A stretch of DNA of 63,371 nucleotides, filler included, from Dugesia japonica (taxonomy: Eukaryota), in the NCBI GenBank assembly GCA_001938525.1. It is 5 parts of 5 records of this genome, joined end to end, with 100 filler letters (N's around TTAATTAATTAA, not from the genome) between each part and the next. Parts side by side here need not be neighbours in the genome. Positions count along the whole stretch, not along the records: positions 42,647 to 54,475 come from MQRL01605818.1; 4 more parts are not named here. One strand, given 5' to 3'. The translations under genes and the position numbers were made by a program. Positions 19,030 through 54,350 of the stretch are shown here, in pieces; the stretch's first letter is position 1, and every line of letters begins with the position of its first letter. The notes under the pieces are model-generated. The model worked only from the letters and a program-made list of their open reading frames with translations, did no database searches and was not told the origin of the DNA.

Positions 19030-19805
19030 TATAAGACCAAGATGATATACTACCTTTCCTTGAATATATGAACAGTCTTCATCAAAATATGAAATTCACN
19101 ATAGAAGTTGAAAAAGAAGGTAAACTACCATTCTTAGATGTTCTTGTTTGTAGACAGGGTTGCAACTATAATACATCGCTATATAAAAAATCAACAGACA
19201 CAGGACTTTATACCGCTCCTAAAAGTTTTTGTGATGATCGATATAAGAATGGATTNNNNNNNNNNNNNNNNNNNNNNNNNNNNNNNNNNNNNNNNNNNNN
19301 NNNNNNNNNNNNNNNNNNNNNNNNNNNNNNNNNNNNNNNNNNNNNNNNNNNNNNNNNNNNNNNNNNNNNNNNNNNNNNNNNNNNNNNNNNNNNNNNNNNN
19401 NATCAAATAATGACCAAGAAGAAAACATTAAAAATAATCAAGAAAAAATAACTATAAAACTACCATTCTTGGAAGAATCTAAATCATTAAAATGCTCTCT
19501 CGTGAAATATTTTGATGATAATAAATTTAAATTCATTTTCAGTTCAAAGAAAACCTCAAGTTATTTAAGCAACAAATCTACTACAACAAAAGCTTTACTC
19601 GCTAACTTAGTTTATCCATTTAATTTTAACGAGTGTGATGCCATGTACATTGGAGAGACAAAACGTCATCTTCGTACACGTGTTAGCGAGCATATGCAAT
19701 TGAGTAGGAAAAGTTCGGTTTTAGATCATGCCTGTTTCTGCAAAAGTAGAAAAGACAAAATAAGCATTGATGAGTTTACAGTTTTGAAACTGCTGTTAGC
19801 GAATT
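19030..19805 (+). mobile_element. Penelope-like element 3' fragment (RT thumb + GIY-YIG endonuclease)
   Basis: MNSLHQNMKFxIEVEKEGKLPFLDVLV..LYKKSTDTGLY; NLVY.F...CDAMYIGETKRHLRTRVSEH. Confidence 0.9.
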
Positions 19806-20440
19806 GAGCAAAAATGATGCATATCTCATAACAGTTGAGGGAGTTTACAAATTTTTGTTTGAAAAAATGCAACCTATCCAAGCTGCTACATGGTATTAAA
19901 AGAAGGATGGAGTAAAGAAGAGATCCAGTCTTAATGACACTTATTATTTATCTACATGGTGGAAATGCACCAAGTTCAAACGATTATTTTCAATATTCTT
20001 CAAAAAATGCAACAATTTCATTTGCTGAAAAAATTATGAAACAATCATATCCAAAAGTATTTATTGAAGAAAGTAATAATGATAATTCCACATCATCTTC
20101 AACTGATGATGTAAAAGAATGATCACCACAAGCTGAATTATGAAAAGAATTGCAAAATGCAATAAGTTCCATTACAGAAAAATTTAATGCTAATAATGAA
20201 ACAAATAATAAATATAATGTACTGGAAAAAGAATTTCACCAATTGGATTTATTCAAAAAACGATTNNNNNNNNNNNNNNNNNNNNNNNNNNNATTGATTA
20301 CTATACGACCTATCTCAACAGCATTTGAAAGAGTGTTATCAACAGCAGATGCAATAAAATCGAAAAGGAGATTAAAGTTAAATGTAGAAACTTTCAATTC
20401 CCTTCTATTTTTAAAATATATGTTTAAAAGTAATACATAA
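19806..20440 (+). mobile_element. hAT transposase C-terminal remnant
   Basis: LITIRPISTAFERVLSTA..KSKRRLKLNVETFNSLLFLK is a hAT dimerisation domain. Confidence 0.8.
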
Positions 20441-31864: not shown

Positions 31865-34050
31865 TTATAAGAGCAATGTTGAATCCATAAATGTTAATTT
31901 TAGGATTTAATGCCCTTATCAACAAAGTTTCACATACCACTCTCTCCCAATAATTGTTAAATCCACTGCACAAACTTTTATTATCATAAAACCCTATTGA
32001 TTTATACATTTTCTACGATGCTCAACAATATTACTATTTCCACTATTTTGACTATGCTCTTGAATTCTGGTGCAGTGATGACTTAAAATCTCTCCAATGT
32101 ATGTGGCGTTACACTCATTGCATTTAAATTGATAGACTAGATCAGAGCACAAGCCTAAAGAGATTATAGATTTAGTATTATTGAACCTTATAATTTATAA
32201 CCTTATAAGACTGACATACAACCTTTATATTTAAAATATTTTTAAGACCTATTTCAATCAAAGGTTTGAATTCTTTAAAGCCTTTAGAATAAGATAAAAA
32301 TAAAATAATTTTAGGATCCGTTTTTACAATCTCACATACATCCACACGCGACAAGTTACTATTTAGTTTATTCAAAGTTTCATAAACTAATTTGTCCGTA
32401 AACAATTTAGAATACCCATTATTATAAAGTAAGTCAATTAATTTATTTAGACTTTTGTCTGCTTTGCTTAAGTAAAAGAGACAAAGAACAATGGATTAGT
32501 CCTTTAATCATATTACTTTTATATTTTATGTCAATATATTTTATTCATTATATTTCTGTTTTAAATGAGGTATTCATTCTTTCAATAAGCAAAGCAAGAT
32601 ATGGAATAGTTGAAGTGATTTCTTCTTCAACCGTAAAGTCTATATTTGGATGCAAGTTATTAACCTACTCCAAAAACGGATGTACTTGAGAGCGATTTTC
32701 AATAACAAGAAAAATATCATCGACATAACGCTTATAAACTAAAGGTTTAATAGAAGAATAATCATTAATCTTACTCTCTAATTTAGACAAGAAAATAGAA
32801 GCCAATGTTGGAACTAATAGGGATCCCATCGTTACACCGTCAACATGTCTATACCATTCATCATTAAAAAGAAATAGAACATTCGATGTTGCAAAAGTTA
32901 AAAGATCATGAAACGCTATATCATCTAAAGAGAATTTATTAGAATTAAACTCACTCCACATTTCACAACACAAATCTATTTTCTCTTTTAATGGAACATT
33001 AGTAAATAAACTAGTTACATCAAACGAGACCGTAAAACCACCATTACTATCCAATAAATACTGAGAAATAAAAGATGAAAATTCAAAACTGTCTTTGCAC
33101 TCAAATTCAGATGTATATAAAGGATTAATAAGATCATCTAACAGTTTTGCAACCTTATATTGAGCTTTATCTATCATGGATAAAACAGGATGCATATGAA
33201 CATCTTTCTTATGGACTTTATGGCAGTCCATAAAGCTTCGCAGGTTTCAAACCTCTATGATGTACTTTTTCAAATATATCTTTAGTGATATTATTAGTTT
33301 CTAACAATCTATTAAGCATAAAAATCAAATATTCCTTGTCTTTCAAAGATGAAAATTTAGCATTCTTTCAGAAATTACCAGTTTTCAAAGATTGAGAACT
33401 ATTTAAAATAGATGACAATTTATCAATATAATTCTTATAATTCAGAATCCATTAACTTTATCAAATTTACAAACCTTAATATTTTTTGAAGACAAAGTTA
33501 TTTATATTAAAAAATCTTTATTATCTTGTTTACTATTTTTAGATGAATAATTCATAGTGTTTATATAAAACACATGTTTTAAAAAATTTAAATCAGATTC
33601 ATTTTTAATATAGAATTATAATTTTCAAATTTATTTGAAACAAAATTGAAACTTTTTTCAATATTAAACTTAAATTTAACTTGATTTATCTTTTTCTTAA
33701 TACTATGTCATGGTCCATAACGTAGAAGTTTAATTTCATCATCAGTGAATTTAATATCATTCATATTTAAAACAGTATTTTTTATATTAAATTGATATAC
33801 GCCAAATAATTTTCTAAGGTTAATTAATTTCTTACTCTGTGCAGTGATTGTATTGGAGAGTAATTTTAAAGAATTAAAAATTGAAACTTTAATACACAAT
33901 TAAAAACCATAATCACCTATCACCTCATAAAGAACAAGTCTCTAAACTGATAACTGCCTAACTAAATCATTCCTTCTTTTTTCTCTATTTCTAACATACG
34001 CATGAGCACCTTCCTGTGGATCATTCTGACACACTCATTTGAAAGGCATT
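31865..34050 (-). mobile_element. Penelope-like retroelement, near full-length and degenerate
   Basis: RT: VSFDVTSLFTNVP, GVTMGS, YKRYVDDIF; GIY-YIG: DLVYQFKCNECNATYIG..TRIQEH..ETLLIRALNPKIN. Confidence 0.9.
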
Positions 34051-34499: not shown

Positions 34500-34828
34500 T
34501 ATATCACATATTATGTACTATACTATTTCTGGAGGTAGAAATGATGTAAAGTTTTATATAAACAGATTGCAAACTGAATACTTTGATTTAAATGGTACTA
34601 TGTTGTATATTAAGTTAAAGGTTGCCAAGATTGGAAAACTTTGGAAATAAGTCTTACATGTTTCATCATCTGTTTGAAGATTTTATTTTCAGATTTTATA
34701 ATACAAAAATTGAAAGTGGAAATAGAACTTATATTTCCAAGGCTATGATTGAAACTATTTTAAATTATAATGGAGATTGTAAGAATATTTGTCTTAATGT
34801 AATTGTTTATCGAACCCAAGAAATTTAA
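34500..34828 (+). pseudogene. Polinton major capsid protein N-terminal fragment
   Basis: DVKFYINRLQTEYFDLNGTMLYIKLKV and FHHLFEDF..YNTKIESGNRTYISKAMIETILNYN resemble the Maverick MCP pattern EY.DL..T.LY.K / HSLF......N.......Y.Y.A..ETLLNY. Confidence 0.65.
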
Positions 34829-36029
34829 ACAAGTCTATTAAATTATCAAAAGAATTCCCATTATTCTTTACAATTGGATTTAATAGATCAGTCCAAATAT
34901 TTTATTTTCTAAAAACATTGATCTTTTGTTAATTCTGAATCCAGAATTAAAGTCAGAATAAAACATTTTGTAATCTAACAATCATTGAAGCATATTAAAT
35001 GTTGAATCATATTATATTGGATAATTTAGAACAGCTTTTAAAAATTAAACCTTTTCGATAAATTTGTGATATTTGATGTTCTTAATTTCTTACAAATAAA
35101 CGGATTCAGTGTTTGAGTTTGGGTTCCGTTTTCAGCTCTGAAATAAAGCACATAAACTAAGTTTCCTTTATATATGTAGCACATTACTTTTAATTTCATT
35201 CATTTAATAAATCAATGTTAATATATGTTGATTTAACTTTAACGACTGATATATATCCTTGACTGTTGAATAATAATTATATTCCTCAGGGGTCTAATAT
35301 TTGTGCCTAAGGCTTATTGTGCTGCTCTTATTGATTTGCGTATTCCTAAAAGCCCTTCTGATAAATCATCTAGTCTTGTATTTTTTGTCGTTTTAATTTT
35401 TTTTATATTATTTTACTTTTGTTCAAACGGCCAAAATCTATTGCTTTTCTTCCAGTCGGTAAAACGTTTTTTATTCTTAGATAGAAGAGCAAATTAGAAT
35501 ATTTGATGGAAACGTTCTAAGTCACATATTATTGAGTTAATAAACAACGTTCTCTCTAATTTTGAAAACACTTGTGCGGGGTAAACTGCAATATTGGAAA
35601 ATCATATAAATTAAAAGAAAATTGGTCAAATTATTAAACATCCCAATTTTTTTGCTGTAATTTTATATTTTAGTATGTAAATAAAAATTGTAACTTATTA
35701 TATTATATAAAAGTTTTTTATTAATATATTACTAAAACTCAATTCCTGAAAAAGACAAAGTCAAAATATTGAACTGTTATCGAATACCAAAAAAAAACAA
35801 AATTTTGATCGAAGCTTTTATTTTAAACGAATTCTAAAAAACGATCAATGGTTATGCCCAACAATTATTTTCAAAATAATTGCAATTGTAAAATTATTAT
35901 ATTATATTCAAACAAGAAGTTTGAATAATTTGATGAAAAGTTATAAATAAAAAACAAAAACGATATACCTATATTAAGTTCAGAAGGTAAAATATATAAC
36001 TATTAAAAATATAAAATCATAATTTAATA

Positions 36030-39879: not shown

Positions 39880-41950
39880 CATCTAATTATTGAATTTCCA
39901 TAACTTTTAAAGAATTGGTAACATAGATGCGATTTGTTTTACTCAACTGATTTGTATTAAAAAATATATCTTTTCTTTTCCAGCAACAAATTCAATTTGT
40001 TTAAATTAGTTTTGGATAAAAAATTATTAATTTATATTAACCAATCGATGTAGCAACTATGTTGGAAGTACACCCCAGCAGAATTGTTAGATTCTTAACC
40101 TCCAAAAGTAATAGCAATAGACGAAGATAAATCTTTAAAAACCTTTTGTTTTAANNNNNNNNNNNNNNNNNNNNNNNNNNNNNNNNNNNNNNNNNNNNNN
40201 NNNNNNNNNNNNNNNNNNNNNNNNNNNNNNNNNNNNNNNNNNNNNNNNNNNNNNNNNNNNNNTGAATAATTTAGTTTATTGAAACCTAGTTCATCAAAAA
40301 TCATTTAAAATTAAGAATTTCAGGTTGTAAATTTTTAACTTCATTAGAGAAATTCCACATTAACTTTCTTCGATTGACATGTGTTTAATATTGGATTTCA
40401 GTCCTTACTTATTGCACTTAAATTAAGAGGATTAAATGTTTTCTTTAAATAATTGTAATGGGTTGGGAATATTTTGTTTAAATTGTGAATTATAACTTAA
40501 TCAATAAAGGCTTAAAACCGCAGAATAACGTAACAGAAATTACTAATTCTTCTTTTACCAGAAGGAATAACTTCAAATAGTATAAAGCACTAAAACACTT
40601 CTTACCAACATTTGCGGACTTGATTGTTTTTGTTTTATATTTTATTTATATACAAGACAGATTAACAATCTGATCCGCTGGACCCAAACAAAACGGTGAA
40701 CTCATACACTTCTACTTAAACGGAGTCATCTGGGAAATCCCGAAGATGATCTTAGTATAATCATTTAAATGCTTGTGATTTTCATGAGCATACCCGTAAG
40801 TAATTATTTTGAACATCAAATTCATGAAAGCTCAACAGTCATAATGTATTGAAATTGGATTTTAACATTTTTGAATGCTTTGTTTTGCAATGTTGGGATT
40901 ATAAATTTACATTTATTTTCTGTTTTGCATTCGTCAGCAACTAAGTCATGCAGAGAAGCCAAATTGTTTTGATAGATCAGGAAGCATCCACTAGAATAAT
41001 GTGATAGCCCCTACAAAACCGTGTTAGTGCTTTAACTGAATTTGGTGTACTCATTTGAAGGGTCTGATCTGTTTTACGTTTAGATCTTTGGATACTAGCT
41101 TTGAAAATATTGTAACCTAGAATTTTGATATTATTTTAATGGTTCTGACATTTCTTTTCATTGATCATTAAGTTTACATTACATAATGTTTTAAGAATTA
41201 GTTAACTGTTGATTCTGTGTGTGATTTCTTTGATTGAGAAAAAAGTAATGTCATCAATATAGGTAAGTGCAAATGACTTTAAGGATTTGTTTCATATACC
41301 ATATAAACAGTCAATACAGTTTAAATGGCATGCCTGTATATTTGACTAAATTGCATGGTCTTGTGTCTATCATCGGAATGTATCGGTATTTTGTTATAAA
41401 TTCTCATAATATTCATCAACACGTTCAGTTAATACATCCAAATTAATCATTTTCGTTTTTCACTGGTCCTATCATTTTTAGAGCCCTTTGAGAAATTTGT
41501 ATACTCGTTATTTTAATCCTTAAATATGAGTGATTATCATATGTCACTTAATTGAAAGATTTTCATGATGTTGCAATTGACCATTAACTTGTAATTAGCT
41601 AAAAAGTTGGATATCAAGATTAAAGTATATGAAAAAGTGTCATGGAAATCCTCAATTTGAAACAGTAGAGTTCTTTTCCATATAACTTAAAAGCGGAGTT
41701 ACTGGCTGATTTCATTTGTAATGTGACTGTTATATCATCTACCTGAAAGATTGATTTTAGAAAAGCAATTATGTCGGCACCCAAATAGATTGGGGAATGT
41801 TATATTAAACTATTCAGAAATATCGGTAGCGCAAATATTATCGGTTATGAATTAGACGGGTTCTCAGACTCTAATGTCTATTCCCGGCAATTTTGAATCT
41901 TAAAAGCATAGTGGTTAACATTTTTGGTAAGTTTGCAAATTTTGAGTGAT
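39880..41950 (-). mobile_element. Highly decayed Gypsy pol (RT, RNase H, start of integrase)
   Basis: Minus strand MPF, ALTYIDDI (about 41250-41275) and DAS (about 40985). Confidence 0.65.
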
Positions 41951-42024: not shown

Positions 42025-42546
42025 TCAGTATTGAATCAAGGTATAAGTTAATATTGAATCAATATATCGATCAATATTAAATCAATATAGTGTTTAATAT
42101 TAGATCAATTTATTTGTTAATATTGAATCAATATATCGATCAATATTGANNNNNNNNNNNNATCAATATTGAATAAATTTATTGGCTAATATTAAATCAA
42201 TATATTGATCAATACTGAATCAATATAGTGGTTAATATTGAATCAGTTTATTGGTTAATATTAAATCAATATATTGATCAATACTGAATCAATATGTCAA
42301 TTCATATTGAATCAATTTATTGATCAATACTGAATCAATATATCGATCAATATCAAATCAATATAGTGTTTAATATTGAATCAATTTATTGGTTAATATT
42401 GAATCAATATATCTATCAATATTGAATCAATTTATTGGTTAATATTTAATCAATATATTGATCAATAATAAATCAATATAGTGGTTAATATTGAATCAGT
42501 TTATTGGTTAATATTAAATCAATATATTGATCAATATTGAATCAGT
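42025..42546. repeat. 23-bp minisatellite
   Basis: Unit AATATTGAATCAAT(A/T)TAT(C/T)G(A/G)T(C/T), about 22 copies, running into the spacer. Confidence 0.9.
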
Positions 42547-42646: not shown

Positions 42647-43170
42647 AACTATAGTTCATCACATTGAAAGTTTTAAGTTATTACCTTATACAGACACTAA
42701 AATTACTTTTTTCACATAGAATTTCTTAGTCAACACATAAAAGTTATGATCCATCACACTAAAATTACATTCCATCACATTAAAACTATAATCCAATACA
42801 TTAAAATTATATTTCATTACACAAAATTGAGGGTCAACACAAAAAAATTATAATCCATGCACTAAAATTACTTTAATCACACAAAAATCTTAAACATCTC
42901 ATAAAACTTCTAAGCCAACGCATAAAATGTCTAAGTCAGCACATAATTTATAGTTTGTTAAATATAATTTCTTAGTCAACACATAAAAATTGTAACCAAG
43001 AAGTTAAAATTATAATCTGTCATATTAAAAATATAGTTCATCAAATTGAAATTTCTAACACATTACTTCTAAAATTACATTCTATCAAACCAAATGTCAT
43101 TCAATCACAGTAAAATTCTACGTAGTCACACAAAATTACTAAACTAGTACAACAAAATTATAATTCATCG
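42647..43170. repeat. Degenerate minisatellite, about 21-bp unit
   Basis: Recurrent CACA(C/T)(T/A)AAAATTA..........AT. Confidence 0.75.
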
Positions 43171-44094
43171 TGCTACAGTTAAATAGAAGACGTTGAAATT
43201 ATTTAAAAATACATATAAGTCAATAAATCATTTCAAACATTGTATATTTCTATTAAAAAGTTTTATAAATTACACAGAAGTAAACAATTGATGAAATTAC
43301 AAGATAAGGTCAATGGATTATAAAGTGAGGCACAGTTTGCAGTCTGAAAAAAGAGCAAAGCAAATGCATGATAATAGAAGATATACTAGAATAAAGGAAA
43401 ATATTTAATATTACAAAATCTATTTTGGAATTCTTAAACATGCATGCAATAAGTTATCCTTACCAAGGACAATGTGATTACAATTGTAATTGATTCCTGA
43501 ATGCTTCGAGATTATTAACATTTCAAGATAAATTTCTTCTTAAAGCTGATTATTTATGCATTCCAAGTAAATTTTGTAACTATTATTATTGTTATTAATA
43601 CAGTTTAGAAACCAGATAAACTAAAATGATGTCCATTCAACATACAAATATTAAAAATCAGTTCAATGGACAAGAAAATAATCAACAATTTTCTATCAAG
43701 AATTGATAATATGTTGAAAATATATGATGCTACCTTTAGAAATGATAAGGAGCCCGATGAAAATTGCAATATGAGTGAGACAAATTAGTTAATAATATTA
43801 ATATTCAAAGGATTTAATAGATATTAACAATACACTTAGCAATATTTGGAAGATAAAAACTATGCAAGATTTTTATTAATAAATGTTTTTAACTCTATTT
43901 TGTTGATTTGTTCTTATTTAGTTATGCACAACTATGTTAATTTGTATTAATGGTTTAAATAAAAGGAAACAATTTCAATTAACAGAACTTATTAAATAAT
44001 ACATTGTTTATTGTTTTCATGCATTTGTTTTGCACTAGTTTTGTGTTTTCTCGATTAAACTGTTCAAATTTGACATTATATTATGAATTCTACT

Positions 44095-44454
44095 TGGATA
44101 ATACAAATTCTTTCCTAGTAAAAAATACATTAACACATATGATTGTATTTAGTACGTCTCATTGCTGGAAAAAATTCAGGTTAATACATACACTTGCTAA
44201 TGCATACAAATTAACTGATTGTTTCAAATTGACTACAATAGTTAACGATTGTAACTCAATGTTTTTAACGTCATATTGTAAATGTTTCATTTCTATTGGA
44301 TCCATGCATCCCATAATTCTACAATTCCCTGATTTAAAGAATATTCTCGTATAATCTCAACTTATATAAACAATTTGTGATGGTTTGTCGATAGAAATAT
44401 CATTTTACTGGTGATTTCTTGAGATACCAGTNCTTCATAATTAATANTAGTAAT
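44095..44454 (-). pseudogene. TATA-binding-protein-like gene, intronless and frameshifted
   Basis: Manual translation ITxINY...KPSQIV...RIFFKSGNCRIMG...IELQSLTIVVNLKQSVNLYALA / CMY*PEFFPAMR.TKYN-ICVNVFFTRK gives both TBP repeats (IF.SGK...G and YEPELFP....VF.SGK). Confidence 0.75.
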
Positions 44455-46029
44455 CGNTTTTATTATTAACTTTTAAATATGTGCTTGTTGTAAATATTTT
44501 TTTCCAACAATATAAACAAGTTACAAAATTATCATATAAATTTTAAAAATTTCTACAGTTTTCCTATTATTTAAACAAAAATGAGCTCTTCCACGAATTT
44601 TAAGCAATTACGATAAAAAATCCAAGAATAAGTTCAGTTTTTTCTAAAACACTTACAATAGTAACACTTACATTGGTAGTATGACGTATGTTATATAGAG
44701 ATATTTATAGTTGTAGAGATATTTATGCAGAAAGGATTAAAATATAAACTTAGATAATTCAAATATAAAGCAATAGAAGTTTGCAGTTCAATTATTTACA
44801 AAATTAAAAATTACCATTTGATTTATATCTTGCAAGAAATGTTAAAACTACAATTAAAATGACCCAAGTGATTATAACTATAAATATTATAAATGAAATA
44901 TTTTGAAATTTATTTTTTACTTACACAAGCCAATGAATACTTTTGCATAATCTGAAAAATTAAAAGCAAAATAATAATAAGAATAATTGTAAAAGAATCG
45001 TCCAAAAAACTTTATTTCCAATTAAAAAATATTACATTCGCACAACGTTTGTCAAAATTACGATTTTACAAGATTTTACAAGAAAAAAACATCTTAAAGG
45101 AATAATATTTCTGTTTGTTTTCGATGGTTTTACATCATATTTACCACTTTGAATTCGTTGAATGCCCCTTATTCGACCCTTCATTTTCTGCTACCAGGTC
45201 TATCCATAGTTACAAGAACTTGCAGCCGTTTGAATGATCTCCAGATGATTTTGATGTTGAAAAATACAATTGTTTTTATGTCGGCATACACCTTGATAAA
45301 TCCCAGCCTCGTAATGATTGATTTGAACCAGTGTTAGCTCAACTTTACATCTAACGTGGATTACTCTGCCAGCTTGTCGAGTAATTTATTCAATCTACTT
45401 ATTTTCTCTTTCCTCACTTATCTTCTTTGCTAGAAAACGGTTTATAACATTGTCTTAAAACTTAAAATTAACTCTTATTCATGTCTATAATTGAACATAG
45501 TTCTTTAAACCTTTCATTTATTCTATAAGTGGAACATAATGGTGATACAAATAAAAATATTTATTATACACCAATTAATCTAAAATCCTTATAATTTATA
45601 TTCATCAATAATATTGGGTGTTGCTTTCCTCTGTAACTCTGCTTCATTATAGTCATCTTCGTTTGTTGAACATCTACACTTCATGTAATAAGAACTACTA
45701 CTTTCCCTCACTTAGTTTTTACGGCGCCCATTCTTTATTAAGCAATCAATACCCATTTGCAAACATAACTGATCTTTATCATTAACCAATTTCAACTGAT
45801 TAAGTTTCCTATTCATTACCTTCCGTATTTTCATAGAGTTTATGCATTTATGTGGGTATATAAATAGACAAATCCTAAGGTTTTGAATACTTGCCAATTT
45901 GTTTGTAGTCTCATGAATTTAAATATAAATTATGGTAATTTTATTTCAACTATTTTTTTCAAACATCTCAATAATTAAAATGTGCTTATTTTAACAAAGA
46001 CTAACTTATATTTTAAACAAAAATCATAA

Positions 46030-46650
46030 AAATATATAAGTCGCAATTCTGAATGACAGTCTACTAAAACATTACTGTTCATGCATTGTTGAAAATTTAG
46101 TCGTTCCTTTTGATTCCTCGTCAAATTATATTTGATAATGAACATATCTCAAATCAATTGAACTGAAATAATTTGATCAATCCAATTTTTTCATCATTTT
46201 ATCTTTGATATGGTTTATCTGTTTGAGACTGCATGCATTTGTCTGAAATACAAGCATTTCCTTTTGGCTTTTTATTTCGTTTTTCAGAACAGTGGAGTAA
46301 CTTATGGAGAATTAGTTTTTAGAATAATATTATTTTCATAAATATTTTGAAAATTTTCTTCAATTTTAGCTTCTAAGTTCATTGGTTACATAATATGGTC
46401 ATACATTTATAACTATATTTCATTAGTAAATACTTATCTGATTGTTCTTATTCAAAAAGTTGTCTCTGCTTTTGCTAAATCACTTGACTTTTTAAATTTG
46501 TCTTCTAAATTTTGCTTCACAGTTTTAAGTGTAGTTTCCGACTTGTTTTATAGTTTCATTACCACCCATTAGTTCTGGTAAAATTTATTCCACTACTAAA
46601 AATAACCTCTTTCCAGAGTTTAATTCTAACTATTTTAATTTTCCTCCGAA
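46030..46650 (-). mobile_element. Gypsy RT N-terminal remnant
   Basis: YFSSIDLR..YQI.FDEESKGTTKFST....FSRLSF. Confidence 0.7.
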
Positions 46651-47904: not shown

Positions 47905-48300
47905 TAATGAGCAATATACCAAACTAGTTTCTCTTCCAGTCAAAAAGCGTTAATCATCCAGACAAGACAATTCGCGTTTCGTACTCTCTATTGTATAAAC
48001 CTTATGATTTATTGATTAGAACAAGTCTGTTAAACCTCATTTGGATCCTTTTCTTTTTTGTCTTCATCTTTATCGTATCAATTTAAATAGTTTTGAAGAT
48101 TGATATATGTTTGCTTTTAACTGATACATTTTACCTTCATTGTTATACTAGCATATGTTTACTGTAAACTATAAGATACACATTCAGTATAATCTTCACT
48201 TTCTCTTTCATCATTAAACAATCCAATTATATTAGCCAAATTGTTGAAATGGAGTAGATGAGCTTTTATGTATTGGTTTGTATTCAAGAGACCAAGTAGA
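47905..48300 (-). pseudogene. Polinton-type DNA polymerase B, extreme C-terminal fragment
   Basis: LNTNQY..H.LH..NLANIIGLFNDE; SINHKVYTIESTKRELSCLDD*RF..TSL.YCHYK corresponds to H.VYT....K.ALS..DDKR.....L..GHY. Confidence 0.8.
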
Positions 48301-48511
48301 AGGATAGTATTGATCTGGAACAGCACACAATCAGTAACCCCAAGATTAGTGATGTAACGAAACTTAATCCTTATGCATTTAGTTGAAAGTTTAACAATTG
48401 CATCATAGTAAGTAATATTACATTATTGTTTTTTTAAATTTTCACTGTGTAATTAGTTGTGAAATAATTTTTATTTTCTTAGTTTTTGTTGGAAATAATT
48501 TTTTAAAGTTT

Positions 48512-49249: not shown

Positions 49250-49730
49250 CATATTATTTAAACAGCATGGACGTTTCTCCCGAATTTCCTTAAAAAATTC
49301 TATTAAATTTTTTGCCACCATAAGAAAACTTCTGTACTACTTCTGCTTAAAAAGTTTGAAAATATTTTTACAAACTTCAAGACTTTGAACAAGATCAGCC
49401 TAATTACATAAAAAAGTCGATACCACTTAATTCAATAACATAATTTTTGTGCAAAATATTTTTACCAATTAAATACCCCGGATAAAATAAGGCTATTTTA
49501 TATAGCTATGATGCAATTTTAAAATTCTCAACTACAGTTATTAAGTTTCATTACATCAGTAATCTTGGGGATGGATTTTGGGCTAATGCGCTACTATCCA
49601 TCTAATATTATTCTCCTGAATGTCTCCTTAATTAATCCTACTAAATATCTTTCCAATAATTCTTTTGTCAAACACAATTTCTTATGGTGGACACTGGTGT
49701 ATGCTTCATTCCAAGTCTTTCTTTCAACTT
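49250..49730 (-). pseudogene. Possible Polinton minor capsid (penton) remnant
   Basis: YLVGL (YEVGL-like) and LSGIDF...DLVQS.EV (LYVY.D+V-like); heavily decayed. Confidence 0.3.
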
Positions 49731-49989: not shown

Positions 49990-50760
49990 TTTTTGATATT
50001 TTAAAATTTCAAAAAAATGAAAATTTTAAAAAATTTCTTTTTAAAGAAAAAACTTTCTTTAAAAAGCGATTTTTAAATAAGATTTTCGCATTTTCGATTT
50101 TTAAAAACATTTTCAGAAAAGATTTTTGATTTTTTAAAAAGTGATTTTGTGATTTTGCATTTTCGATTTTCAGTTTTTAAAAAAGATTTTTAATTTCAAA
50201 AAAAAGATTTTACATTTTCAAAAAAGATTTTCGATTTTGCATTTTCAATTTTTTAAAAAGATTTTCAAAAAAGATTTTTTAAAAAAAGATTTTGCATTTT
50301 CGATTTTGAGATTTTGCATTTTACATTTTCAATTTTTAAAAAAGATTTTCCATTTTCGATTTTGAGATTTTGCATTTTACATTTTCAATTTTTAAAAAAG
50401 ATTTTTAATTTTAAAAAAAAGATTTTACATTTTCAAAAAAGATTTTCGATTTTTAAAAAAGATTTTCATATTAAAGATTTTGCATTTTGCATTTTCGATT
50501 TTCGATTTTCGATTTTCGATTTAAAAAGAGATTTTGAAAGTTTTCAATTTTTTAAAAATCATCAAAAAAATGAAATTTTTAAATTTTCTTGTTTAAGAAG
50601 AATCACCCAATGAAAAATTAGAGATTTTCAAAAAAGATTTTTAAAAAAGATTTTGAGATTTTAAATTTTGAAATAAAAAAAATTTGAAATTTGAAATTTT
50701 GCATTTCAAAAAGATTTTGAGATTTTCAAAAAAAGATTTTCCTTCTTAAAACAAAATTTT
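49990..50760. repeat. Low-complexity modular repeat (GATTTT/GCATTTT/AAAAAAGATTTT)
   Basis: Dozens of 6-12 bp modules with strong strand asymmetry. Confidence 0.9.
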
Positions 50761-50774
50761 TCCTTTAGAAATAT

Positions 50775-51110
50775 ATGGGAGGAGAGTTGGGATTAGAAGC
50801 GTTATTTAATACAATTCAAAAAAAATTAATATAGAAGATATAAATATTGAAGAAATTATAGTATATACAAAATGTGAATTAAGGAAGGAGCTTGCCAATG
50901 GAAATTTACAAGATCTTAAGGAAATATATAAACTAGTAGATAAAATGAAAATACCTGAAGAATATAAAAAAAACATTTAAAGGATTAATGACATTTGTTA
51001 TTTCTCTTCTAACAAATCGTGATTGTAGAGGTTTGGAGATTAATTATTATGATAAAAAAATTAAATGTCAAGATGAATAAATTAAAGAATTAAAAGAAAA
51101 TTTCAAATAG
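50775..51110 (+). pseudogene. Hypothetical protein, paralog 1 (frameshifted)
   Basis: MGGELGLEALFNT...NIEEII.YTKC; clearly homologous to 51293-51598. Confidence 0.7.
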
Positions 51111-51292
51111 AACGAGATCAAAATAATGAAGCATTAAAAAATTAAAAGAAAATTTCAAACCAGAAATAGTCACACATAAAGATATTGGTTTTAAAGGGAC
51201 AGCATGTGATAAAAGCATATACCTTTATCCAGACGGCGTTCTAGCAACATATAATAGGTATGATGGTAAATGAATTTTTACTTTAAAAAACA

Positions 51293-51598
51293 ATGGAAGG
51301 AGAGTTGGGATTAGAAGCTTTATTTAATACATTTGAAAACTATATAACTATAGAAAATAAAAATATTAATGAAATTATAGAATATACAAAATGTAAATTA
51401 ACACATGAGATCGTTAAAGAAAAATTAAAAGATTTTGAGGAAATATATAAAATAGTAGAAGAAATAAAAATACCTGAAAAAAATAAAAAACCTTTTAAAA
51501 AAATAACAACATTTATTATTTCTCTAATAACAAAAAAAAGTTGTAAAGATTTGATGATTAATTTTTATAATGAAAAAAATATTAATGTAAAAAAATAA
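51293..51598 (+). CDS. Hypothetical protein, paralog 2 (probably element-encoded)
   Basis: Open 101-aa ORF MEGELGLEALFNTFEN...; conserved at protein level with the upstream copy. Confidence 0.6.
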   Translation: MEGELGLEALFNTFENYITIENKNINEIIEYTKCKLTHEIVKEKLKDFEEIYKIVEEIKIPEKNKKPFKKITTFIISLITKKSCKDLMINFYNEKNINVKK

Positions 51599-51793
51599 AA
51601 CCAAAAACAATTATATATAAGGATGTTTGTTTTGTAAAAACACTAAAAGATAAAAATTCGCGTGTTTCACCAAAACAGCTTGCAGCATTATATGATAGTT
51701 TGGAGGGAATTACTGAGAAACCTAAACGCGCGCCTGTGCCATTAATATGTACAAGTATAAAGAGAGTAACAGTCAAAAAATTACCATTAAAAA

Positions 51794-52057
51794 ATGCCTG
51801 AAAAGGTTTTTCATGTATTATTAAAGAATTTTAATTTTAAAGATAATTCAGTAAAAGATTTTTGTAAACTTCATTCAACAAATGAAAAAACAATAAGAGT
51901 ATATTTAAATAAACTAAATATTGAATATAAAAAAAGAACACCAAAAACTTTAATAGAAAGAGATTCAAATGGAAGATTTATTTCCTTAGAAGATAGATTT
52001 GAAAAGAAAATAATGGTGTTTATTCATTTTTTGATGAAATTAAAACGCCAACAGTAG
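51794..52057 (+). CDS. Small putative HTH DNA-binding protein
   Basis: SVKDFCKLHSTNEKTIRVYLNKLNI is HTH-like and is followed by RDSNGRF. Confidence 0.45.
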   Translation: MPEKVFHVLLKNFNFKDNSVKDFCKLHSTNEKTIRVYLNKLNIEYKKRTPKTLIERDSNGRFISLEDRFEKKIMVFIHFLMKLKRQQ

Positions 52058-52199
52058 CGCTAAGGGTAACACCAAAGGCAATGGCCATTAGTAACAGTAA
52101 AACTAACGGTAAAGGGTTGGAGGCGATGGGTGTGGTAAACTTTTTAAATAATTTATAAAGAAAATGGATGGAAAAATAAATCTCAATAATAATATTTTA

Positions 52200-53170
52200 T
52201 TTACACATGAAATGTTAAAAAATGACATATTAAAAATTTCACCAACATCTGATTCAATTAATAATCTAATGACAAAAAGATATGTGGTTTTTCAATCTTT
52301 ACAATCTACGAATCCATGAGATATTTGCAATGCAATTTTATACTTTAAAATAGAATTAGAAATGAATAAAGATAAAATAACCTTGGAAAATAATTTCTTC
52401 CCATCTTTATTTAAATCAATGAGATTAACCCTTGGTGCATCCGATGTAGAAGATATTAAAGATCCTAGAGTAATGTCTACCATGTTAAATTTTATTACAA
52501 CTAGTTATACCCATAAAAATGTATATGGAGAATTATCAGGATTGGTTTTAGATCTCGATAGACGAAAAAATTATACGCAAGTAAAAAATTTGAATTTTAT
52601 TTTCCATTGAGAAATTTATTTAGATTCATGCAAAATTTTAATCGAGTCCTTTACAATACAATGATTGAATTTACTTGTAACTGATCAATTAATGATAAAA
52701 TTTTATTTCATGGGGAAGGCTTGGCATCATTAAAATTAACAACACTTGAACTCCACATTACAGAATGTAGATTAGTGCGTAAAATGGAATTAAAACTTTT
52801 GGAAAGAATTGCCACCGATAAACCAATCAAAGTTGCATTTTTACATAGAATAACATCAAAAACAACTTTAAATTCGGGAAATTATGCTTCTTTGAAAAAA
52901 AAGCAATCTTGCATACAAACCAAGATATACTTTTGTTGTGATAAAGGATGAAAATATTTCTTTTTCTACAAATAATAATTTATTTATACAATAGAAATCA
53001 AAAACCATAAAAGTAGAAATAAAAGATACAATTGTAAATTCTTATTTAAAAACTATGCAAATACAATTAAATAATAATTACTATCCTATTAACGAATGTA
53101 CATTTAATATAGAAAAGAATGAAATGATATTTCCTTATTTAAATTTTTTAAAATGTTGTTATTATATAAA
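52200..53170 (+). pseudogene. Double-jelly-roll major capsid-like protein (Polinton/adintovirus-type), decayed
   Basis: ITLENNFFPSLFKSMRLTLGASDVEDIKDPRVMSTML; LKLTTLELHI...KPIKVAFLHR; LKTMQIQLNNNYYP. Confidence 0.7.
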
Positions 53171-53781
53171 AAAGCTTAATGATTATTTTAAAGAAATAAA
53201 TGAGGGGACTAAAAATAAAAAAAATTGATTCTCCAATAAATCAAATAATAAATGAAATAAAACACATGCTTAATAATTATTTAGTGTGGAGACATAAGCA
53301 TGAAAAAAATATGATTATCTCTTTGAATTCCTTATTACTACAGATAATGAGAGATTTCCATCTTTTTCCCTTAATATATTCATAAAACTAATTAGGATAG
53401 AAATAAAAGAAAAATGTGAATTTATTGATAGAGACTTATATTTTTTTCTTGAAGAACCCACTAATTTTCATTTTATATATACCACACCTATTTCACAAAT
53501 ATCTCTTATAATTTCTGGATATTCACAAATATCTAATTTCATTTTTTGTCTTCGTATTTTTAAGATACCAGAGTCTGATGAAAAAATTTGTTATGATAAC
53601 GATTTAAATAAAAAATTTAAAATTTCTTTAGAACTTAAGATCCTACCTATTTCATTTATGCTGAAAATTTTTTATTTAACTTTACCAAAGAATATTTATA
53701 TTAATAATATTATTATTATAAATAATCATCTTAAACTTGCAAAAAAAATATTTGATGAATTATAAAATTTCCCTAAAGAAA

Positions 53782-54350
53782 ATGGCAGAAGATTCTTTGT
53801 ATCCTAACTTAAAAAATTATCAAGAGGAAATAAATACTTATTCACTTGAAGATCAAAAAGTAAATTATCATCCCTAAGAAGAAAAGATTTGGAAAATGAT
53901 TTGTATTTTATAAAAGATAAAATAAAACACTAAAGAAAAATTTATAGACAATGGAACACTGCCGATGAAGGAATAAAATTATCACAAATTATAATTGGAA
54001 CCGGTGTTGCCATCGCTAGAATAATTTTTGTAACACCACTTGGAATTACTACTGGTGTAATTGTACTTCCTATAATAACTGGAATAGAATCTGTTATTCC
54101 AATTGTCGGGACATTAAATTCATCTTTAATTATCAAGAAAAAGAAAAGGTATGCAAGTTTAATTGTAAAATAAGAAGCCGTAAAAAACAAACTATTCCTC
54201 TGTCAACAGAAGGCCCTAAATGACAATATTTTAACAGCTCAAGAAATTGCGACAAGTGAAACTATGATACGAGAAGTTCAAGAAATAATTTTAAAATCAT
54301 AAGAATCAAATTTAAATTATGAAAATCTACTTAAAAACATAAAAACTTAA
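53782..54350 (+). pseudogene. Polinton-associated hydrophobic-hairpin protein, decayed
   Basis: LYPNL start, coiled region, Gly-rich hydrophobic hairpin (IIIGTGVAIA..LGITTGVIVLP), KKKKRY, and KALNDNILTAQE (KAL.D..I+..E). Confidence 0.55.

Follow-up and report, generated by a model that had tools for sequence, protein, structure and literature searches.

Viral TATA-binding proteins (TBPs) are already known from mirusviruses, large DNA viruses, and herpesviruses. Nucleocytoviricota genomes are large and mostly encode an RNA polymerase. The same holds for mirusviruses, which also encode a TBP (PMC10132985). In herpesviruses, the TBP mimic vTBP (KSHV ORF24, EBV BcRF1) brings host RNA polymerase II to late promoters, whose TATA box is a variant one (PMC12529657). 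In cellular TBP, four phenylalanines intercalate into the TATA box and kink the DNA at steps 1-2 and 7-8, and the C-terminal stirrup binds TFIIB (PMC10005294); helix 2 (H2) of the N-lobe is part of a surface common to TAF1, Mot1, and Kap114 (PMC10491584). A literature search combining Polinton, Maverick, polintovirus, or adintovirus with TBP, with subscription papers and Repbase mostly outside its reach, yielded a single pertinent study, that of Starrett et al. (2021; PMC8502044, also available as a preprint). There, the Fig. S2 text names SSDBP and MAEL among adintovirus genes, and the legend of Fig. 5 includes TBP in its abbreviations, for a related virus. TBP is not in the Fig. S2 text, and the accessible portions of the article neither discuss it nor describe a family, a promoter box, or a mechanism.

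We analyzed a 63,371-nucleotide stretch of Dugesia japonica DNA (the window), which consists of five parts joined end to end and is AT-rich (17 to 32% GC per kb). A mini-TBP pseudogene lies at 44035 to 44457 on the minus strand. The relic begins at 44457 and ends with a stop codon at 44037 to 44035, a run of about 140 codons in five pieces separated by four frame changes (near 44394, 44197, 44141, and 44122); two in-frame stops lie at 44359 and 44183, and three codons contain N. In the stirrup, the codon of the first Glu is a stop. The initial annotation had described a TBP-like, intronless, frameshifted minus-strand gene of about 120 visible codons. The gene itself is confirmed by tblastn with an intact metagenomic protein of 151 aa (P0002), which aligns to three collinear minus-strand pieces in the window (joint E = 3.5e-35; next best place, E = 0.59) with no intron-sized gap, and its length has to be extended as given above. 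The quoted motifs are indeed present, in three minus-strand frames over 44.0 to 44.5 kb, and both TBP core repeats can be recognized, but the first is shortened. The relic and P0002 are identical at 107 of 138 aligned codons (~78%), and a 69-residue piece of the relic, used as a query, identified P0002 as one longer protein among six candidates (79% identical, E = 4e-26).

The broken frames of the relic alone gave no match in Pfam and none in the PDB; the TBP fold was checked by Pfam and structure prediction on intact P0002, not on the relic. P0002 matches the TBP family PF00352 with an E value of 4.4e-15 and 55.7 bits (cut-off 22.9). Its predicted structure, modeled from 99 relatives (pLDDT 95.8), has the two-repeat saddle fold of TBP, matches solved TBPs in Foldseek (E = 2e-9), and aligns with TBP over 148 residues (VIA Z 13.1, rmsd 2.6). 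The relic is therefore what remains of an intronless gene for a TBP-fold protein. As a pseudogene, this copy is unable to redirect polymerase, and its value is as a marker for the mini-TBP family; interest centers on that family and its promoter box, not on the dead copy in the window. The family consists of proteins of about 150 aa, with 182 of 188 candidates passing an E value of 0.001 and PF00352 found in 118 of the 120 relatives listed. We aligned 99 of these 120, dropping 21 short or long ones; the aligned members are a bare core of 144 to 170 aa, in a set selected for length and with longer forms searched for with the 69-aa piece only. Decayed copies also occur elsewhere, as two further family members (L017 and L023) are likewise split into two frames.

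The intact relatives were placed in context by a metagenome scan that gave 335 relatives and 80 retained loci, 22 of them mini-TBP loci on contigs of at most 5.8 kb. Among these 22, 9 contain an ORF for an ATPase, a protease, or a major or putative minor capsid protein, 10 more carry a single-stranded DNA-binding protein (SSB) gene or an ORF found 3' of the protease, and the remaining 3, on contigs of ~1.05 kb, have none of these genes. Some of these profile matches are self-matches, as the loci themselves supplied the sequences for the companion profiles. Independent support comes from Pfam, which identifies an A32-type ATPase (Pox_A32) in L001 and L006 and an adenain-type protease (Peptidase_C5) in L008 and L012, from new profile matches to the ATPase in L018 and L027 and to the protease in L024, and from the capsid match given next; the profiles also place a protease in L011. 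The capsid ORF of L008 scores 0.98 to Atlas double jelly-roll-like clusters, in which 22 to 30% of members have PF21738; Pfam run directly on this ORF gave no match. The relatives thus show the A32-type ATPase, adenain-type protease, and double jelly-roll major capsid protein of Polintons. No protein-primed DNA polymerase (pPolB) was found in the 22 mini-TBP loci, on their contigs of at most 5.8 kb, and no TFIIB among the 41 related-locus ORFs scanned with Pfam.

Other ORFs in these loci are labeled with less certainty. L006 and L001 each end in the truncated start of an ORF, and the two are similar (E = 1e-8) but have no Pfam match; they may belong to an integrase, and the minor-capsid, integrase, and MAEL labels in the related loci are likewise putative, given in part by position. 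A conserved ORF with a DFEAF-type start and no Pfam match lies between the protease and the mini-TBP (L008:3360-3857; also L010, L012, and L016) and sits where adintovirus maps show MAEL, so that it may correspond to that gene. Downstream of the mini-TBP and an SSB-like ORF, two loci contain leucine-rich-repeat ORFs with hydrophobic N termini (L005:1618-1971 and L009:1307-1843), possibly host-interaction cargo.

Alignment of the 99 relatives shows which parts of TBP are kept. Three of the four DNA-wedging phenylalanines, F41, F100, and F116, are invariant (99/99), whereas the column of the first N-lobe Phe contains no Phe in any relative (K in 59, P in 27, S in 7, and R in 3), so that mini-TBPs retain three of the four. 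The acidic stirrup of the C-lobe is nearly unchanged (E96 in 96/99, P97 in 99/99, and E98 in 99/99). The span across H2 measures 48 to 56 residues in 97 of 99 relatives versus 64 to 67 in all nine cellular TBPs, a deficit of about 14 residues; consistent with this, the P0002 model has no helix of four or more residues between the strands at 45 to 51 and 65 to 77, and the N-lobe helix of the regulator-binding surface is predicted to be missing. Together, model and alignments predict a TBP saddle with an intact C-lobe stirrup that has lost the first N-lobe Phe and most of H2. Altered DNA-facing residues are themselves conserved (M49 in 99/99 and S71 in 96/99), suggesting that the protein recognizes a specific site.

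A candidate for such a site is the heptamer TATAAAC, which was picked by eye rather than found blind. It was counted in 16 mini-TBP loci, leaving out L011 (a near copy of L008) and five loci recognized later; as the loci are related, the counts are not independent. Of 35 non-TBP genes, 17 have TATAAAC in the 90 nt preceding them, as opposed to 1 of 14 TBP genes (Fisher p = 0.008); shuffles gave a mean of 0.83 and a maximum of 6. The box has a strand bias of 31:2, and 14 of the 17 upstream boxes start 25 to 43 nt before the ATG. The held-out ATPase genes of L018 and L027 have the box 42 and 35 nt upstream, respectively, and it is absent upstream of the held-out protease gene of L024. The window itself has no late gene marked by TATAAAC. 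Of 18 TATAWAAG sites, 10 have an initiator-like TCAKT/TCATA after them, compared with 1 of 40 TATAAAC sites; TATAWAAG itself lies upstream of 4 of 14 TBP genes and 4 of 35 other genes, which is not significantly different (p = 0.2). The N-lobe of TBP reads the 3' half of the TATA box. Base 7 is where TATAAAC differs from the consensus, and this base lies in the half expected to be read by the altered lobe.

Judged from these sequence features, the intact mini-TBP is probably a DNA-binding initiation factor. Somewhat less firmly, we favor TATAAAC as its putative target and, to a similar degree, a role as the element's own late-gene initiation factor, which would bind TATAAAC and recruit host TFIIB and RNA polymerase II. 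In such a scheme, host TBP would first drive transcription of the mini-TBP and SSB genes, whose promoters would be of the ordinary kind, with a TATA box and an initiator. Mini-TBP would then bind TATAAAC before packaging, capsid, and other genes and nucleate host TFIIB and polymerase II there. The loss of H2 would free it from host regulators such as TAF1, Mot1, and Kap114-type importins. The scheme predicts that an intact relative prefers TATAAAC over TATAAAAG or random DNA. Whether a widespread Polinton group runs its own early-to-late switch in this way, with one re-engineered TBP of ~150 aa that has shed H2, kept the stirrup, and had the lobe reading the 3' half of the TATA box remodeled to favor TATAAAC, is in our judgment an evenly balanced proposition. 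If true, it would be a sign of a staged viral programme in these Polintons. The question bears on how animal Polintons express their capsid genes and on whether their viral cycle is staged, and a dedicated TBP with a matching box puts it within reach of direct tests that need no more than a small protein and a motif of 7 bases. The family would also offer a natural minimal TBP with a predicted change in DNA specificity and no regulator helix.

The kept TFIIB stirrup and the lost H2 surface would also suit a dominant-negative protein. The mini-TBP could then be a Polinton decoy or repressor that occupies TATA DNA or soaks up TFIIB and damps host or early transcription, with host TBP reading TATAAAC. 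Host TBP could do so, as a TBP has been crystallized on a C(-25) TATA variant, according to the title of PDB entry 1qn3. We consider this role unlikely: a non-consensus box that is common to the element's genes and nearly absent at the TBP gene is what an activator cascade predicts, and the conservation of M49 and S71 suggests a specific site.

A gene that frequently accompanies the mini-TBP raises another possibility. In the window, an SSB-like companion remnant lies at 43549 to 43858 on the plus strand, tail-to-tail with the mini-TBP relic. A profile of four companion ORFs matches at 43549 to 43725 (plus strand; E = 2e-4 over the whole window, with nothing in the reversed window), and a C-terminal match near 43826 to 43858 is weak and nonsignificant. 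The model of the companion family (pLDDT 92, from seven sequences) has a fold like that of the T7 gp2.5/Enc34 SSBs, with a Z score of 6.8 to 7.1, middling by the tool's scale; its top four fold matches are T7-type SSBs or ASFV CP312R. The same tail-to-tail order of TBP and SSB is seen in L013, L014, and L019, and with the SSB remnant beside the relic, a two-gene cassette survives in the window. Read contigs over 42700 to 44430, spanning both genes, number 2,212 to 2,403 per run in three runs and are mostly less than 95% alike; the mini-TBP/SSB cassette is present in the reads as many diverged copies. Read run X8, which has the same species label and comes from another study, contains next to no sampled words, yet diverged relatives are present. 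By eye, a TFIIB-like ORF remnant had been considered at 43.1 to 43.8 kb; it was rejected after Pfam found nothing and a homolog search gave 0 of 47 candidates, and the region then matched the SSB family.

SSB is a frequent neighbor in the related loci and the one neighbor surviving beside the relic, as would suit a Polinton gene that works with SSB in replication or genome handling, for example by binding single-stranded or terminal DNA. The Giardia TBP, which lacks three of the phenylalanines, prefers single-stranded DNA (PMC12209930). In mini-TBPs, three of the four phenylalanines and the TFIIB stirrup are nearly invariant, and two genes expressed early, such as these, would be expected to sit side by side in any case. 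A replication role therefore appears quite improbable to us, and an initiation factor remains our preferred reading.

With respect to origin, a TBP borne by a Polinton-like element, as the initial annotation had it, is supported by the neighborhoods of the intact relatives, in which linkage to Polinton genes recurs at other loci (the 9 of 22 above), and by the SSB remnant beside the relic. We regard the relic as very probably a Polinton-borne TBP relic. The element thought to carry it had been placed by same-strand pPolB and capsid remnants 3.5 to 5.5 kb away, and these received no tool match. The only tool-supported capsid in the window is a Polinton major capsid remnant at 34525 to 34915 (tblastn E = 1.1e-10 with the L008 capsid ORF; HMM E = 1.2e-7), which is 9.1 kb from the relic, on the plus strand and thus opposite to it, and may be a separate insertion. 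Profiles from the related loci found neither the A32 ATPase nor the adenain protease in the window.

A relic of a large DNA virus (Nucleocytoviricota or mirusvirus) would account for a viral TBP as well, since such viruses encode TBPs, as seen in BFVD matches and reported for mirusviruses (PMC10132985), and have similar SSBs. Against this, the relatives of the mini-TBP adjoin an adenain protease, a short A32 ATPase, and a Maverick-type capsid, and IMG/VR scans with the TBP alignment, the capsid, the ATPase, and two window pieces gave no matches. We built a tree of 67 rows, in which the group labels of the other rows come from reading their sequences. A single branch separates the 39 mini-TBPs from the other rows; its support, 97/79, falls slightly short of the mark set by the tool. 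Within the mini-TBPs, the window piece nests with P0002 in a clade supported at 100/99. Six TBPs labeled as large-virus type from their sequences form a separate long branch, and a large-virus source is very unlikely.

The copy had also been called strongly divergent; P0002 is ~25% identical to the three cellular TBPs aligned. The tree contains two eukaryotic TBPs and no animal TBP, TRF, or TRF2, and the AU test does not reject a topology in which these two group with the mini-TBPs (p = 0.103). A processed pseudogene of host TBP, TRF2, or TRF3, moved by flanking retroelements, would fit the intronless structure, the nearby reverse-transcriptase remnants, and a shared origin with eukaryotic TBP as allowed by the AU test, but it is hardly credible for a relic that is ~78% identical to a protein itself so distant from cellular TBPs, which excludes a recent host pseudogene, and that sits inside the mini-TBP clade and shares its H2 deletion and SSB neighbor.

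The two reverse-transcriptase remnants flank the cassette 1.6 kb upstream and 2.7 kb downstream of the relic, both on the minus strand and both Ty3/gypsy by eye. One, at 41106 to 41288, lies between the capsid remnant and the TBP cassette (PF00078, E = 4e-7); the other, at 46078 to 46260 and upstream of the TBP, matches PF00078 with an E value of 0.0044, below the curated cut-off. Both are separate insertions. No terminal repeats were seen, and self-blastn detected no inverted pair around the cassette, in a region that is decayed and interrupted. At 48000 to 48422 on the minus strand, a stretch without any tool match has motifs that by eye resemble the end of a protein-primed DNA polymerase. 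Searches for pPolB at 48.0 to 48.4 and 49.4 to 49.8 kb, none with a Polinton pPolB as query, found nothing in Pfam, PHROGs, IMG/VR, or plasmids, nor in the PDB for 48.0 to 48.4 kb. Similarly, Pfam, PHROGs, the PDB, and related-locus profiles gave no pPolB or capsid at 47.9 to 50 kb, and Pfam on six frames of 43 to 53 kb returned no families. Positions 48338 to 48427 and 49486 to 49570 are an inverted pair, 75% alike over 91 bases, of which the second copy lacks the pPolB motifs.

By eye, the window is crowded with transposon remnants. A run of decayed plus-strand ORFs extends from 50755 to 54260, the first of them duplicated (50755 to 51081 and 51273 to 51599, 79% alike); within it, 52155 to 52950 (plus strand) looks by eye like the capsid gene of another Polinton family and has no tool match. 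A partly palindromic minisatellite of 23, 46, and 69 bases occupies 42029 to 42544, and a 21-base tandem array at 42734 to 43053, which is repeated in the read sets, adjoins the SSB remnant and could lie near an element end. A 737-base direct repeat (1 to 737 and 1433 to 2169, 99.5% identical) in an apparent retrotransposon is a recent duplication or an assembly artefact. ORFs at 19035 to 19807 (plus strand) and 32178 to 33246 (minus strand) resemble Penelope/GIY-YIG-type reverse transcriptases by eye.

Compared with known systems, the mini-TBP resembles cellular TBP and TRF (PF00352) in its predicted two-lobed saddle, its YEPELFP stirrup, and three of the four wedging phenylalanines. It differs from cellular TBP in being ~150 aa rather than 180, in having no N-terminal tail and only about a quarter of residues identical, in lacking the first N-lobe Phe and having a shorter H1/stirrup region as well as the shortened H2 span, and in being encoded by a mobile element. 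The elements that carry it are like Polintons, Mavericks, and adintoviruses, as the relatives have an A32/FtsK ATPase, adenain, a hexon-type capsid, an ORF with a pX-like tail, and SSB. Nucleocytoviricota and mirusvirus TBPs share with it a divergent viral TBP fold (best BFVD E = 1.5e-8), but they are mostly longer and only 8 to 21% identical to the mini-TBP. The herpesvirus vTBP provides, by analogy, a model of how such a protein might work without a viral polymerase; in fold, BcRF1 is only weakly like the mini-TBP model (rank 43, E = 0.009 in BFVD). Unlike the mini-TBP, ORF24 needs extra domains and a viral complex (PMC12529657), whereas the aligned mini-TBPs, selected for length at 144 to 170 aa, are not large proteins with extra polymerase- or DNA-binding domains. 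A section heading of the same article describes the ORF24 model as incompatible with TFIIB binding, in contrast to the kept TFIIB stirrup of the mini-TBP. If the proposed role is true, the mini-TBP would do in minimal form, and in dependence on TFIIB, what the late-gene complex does in herpesviruses.
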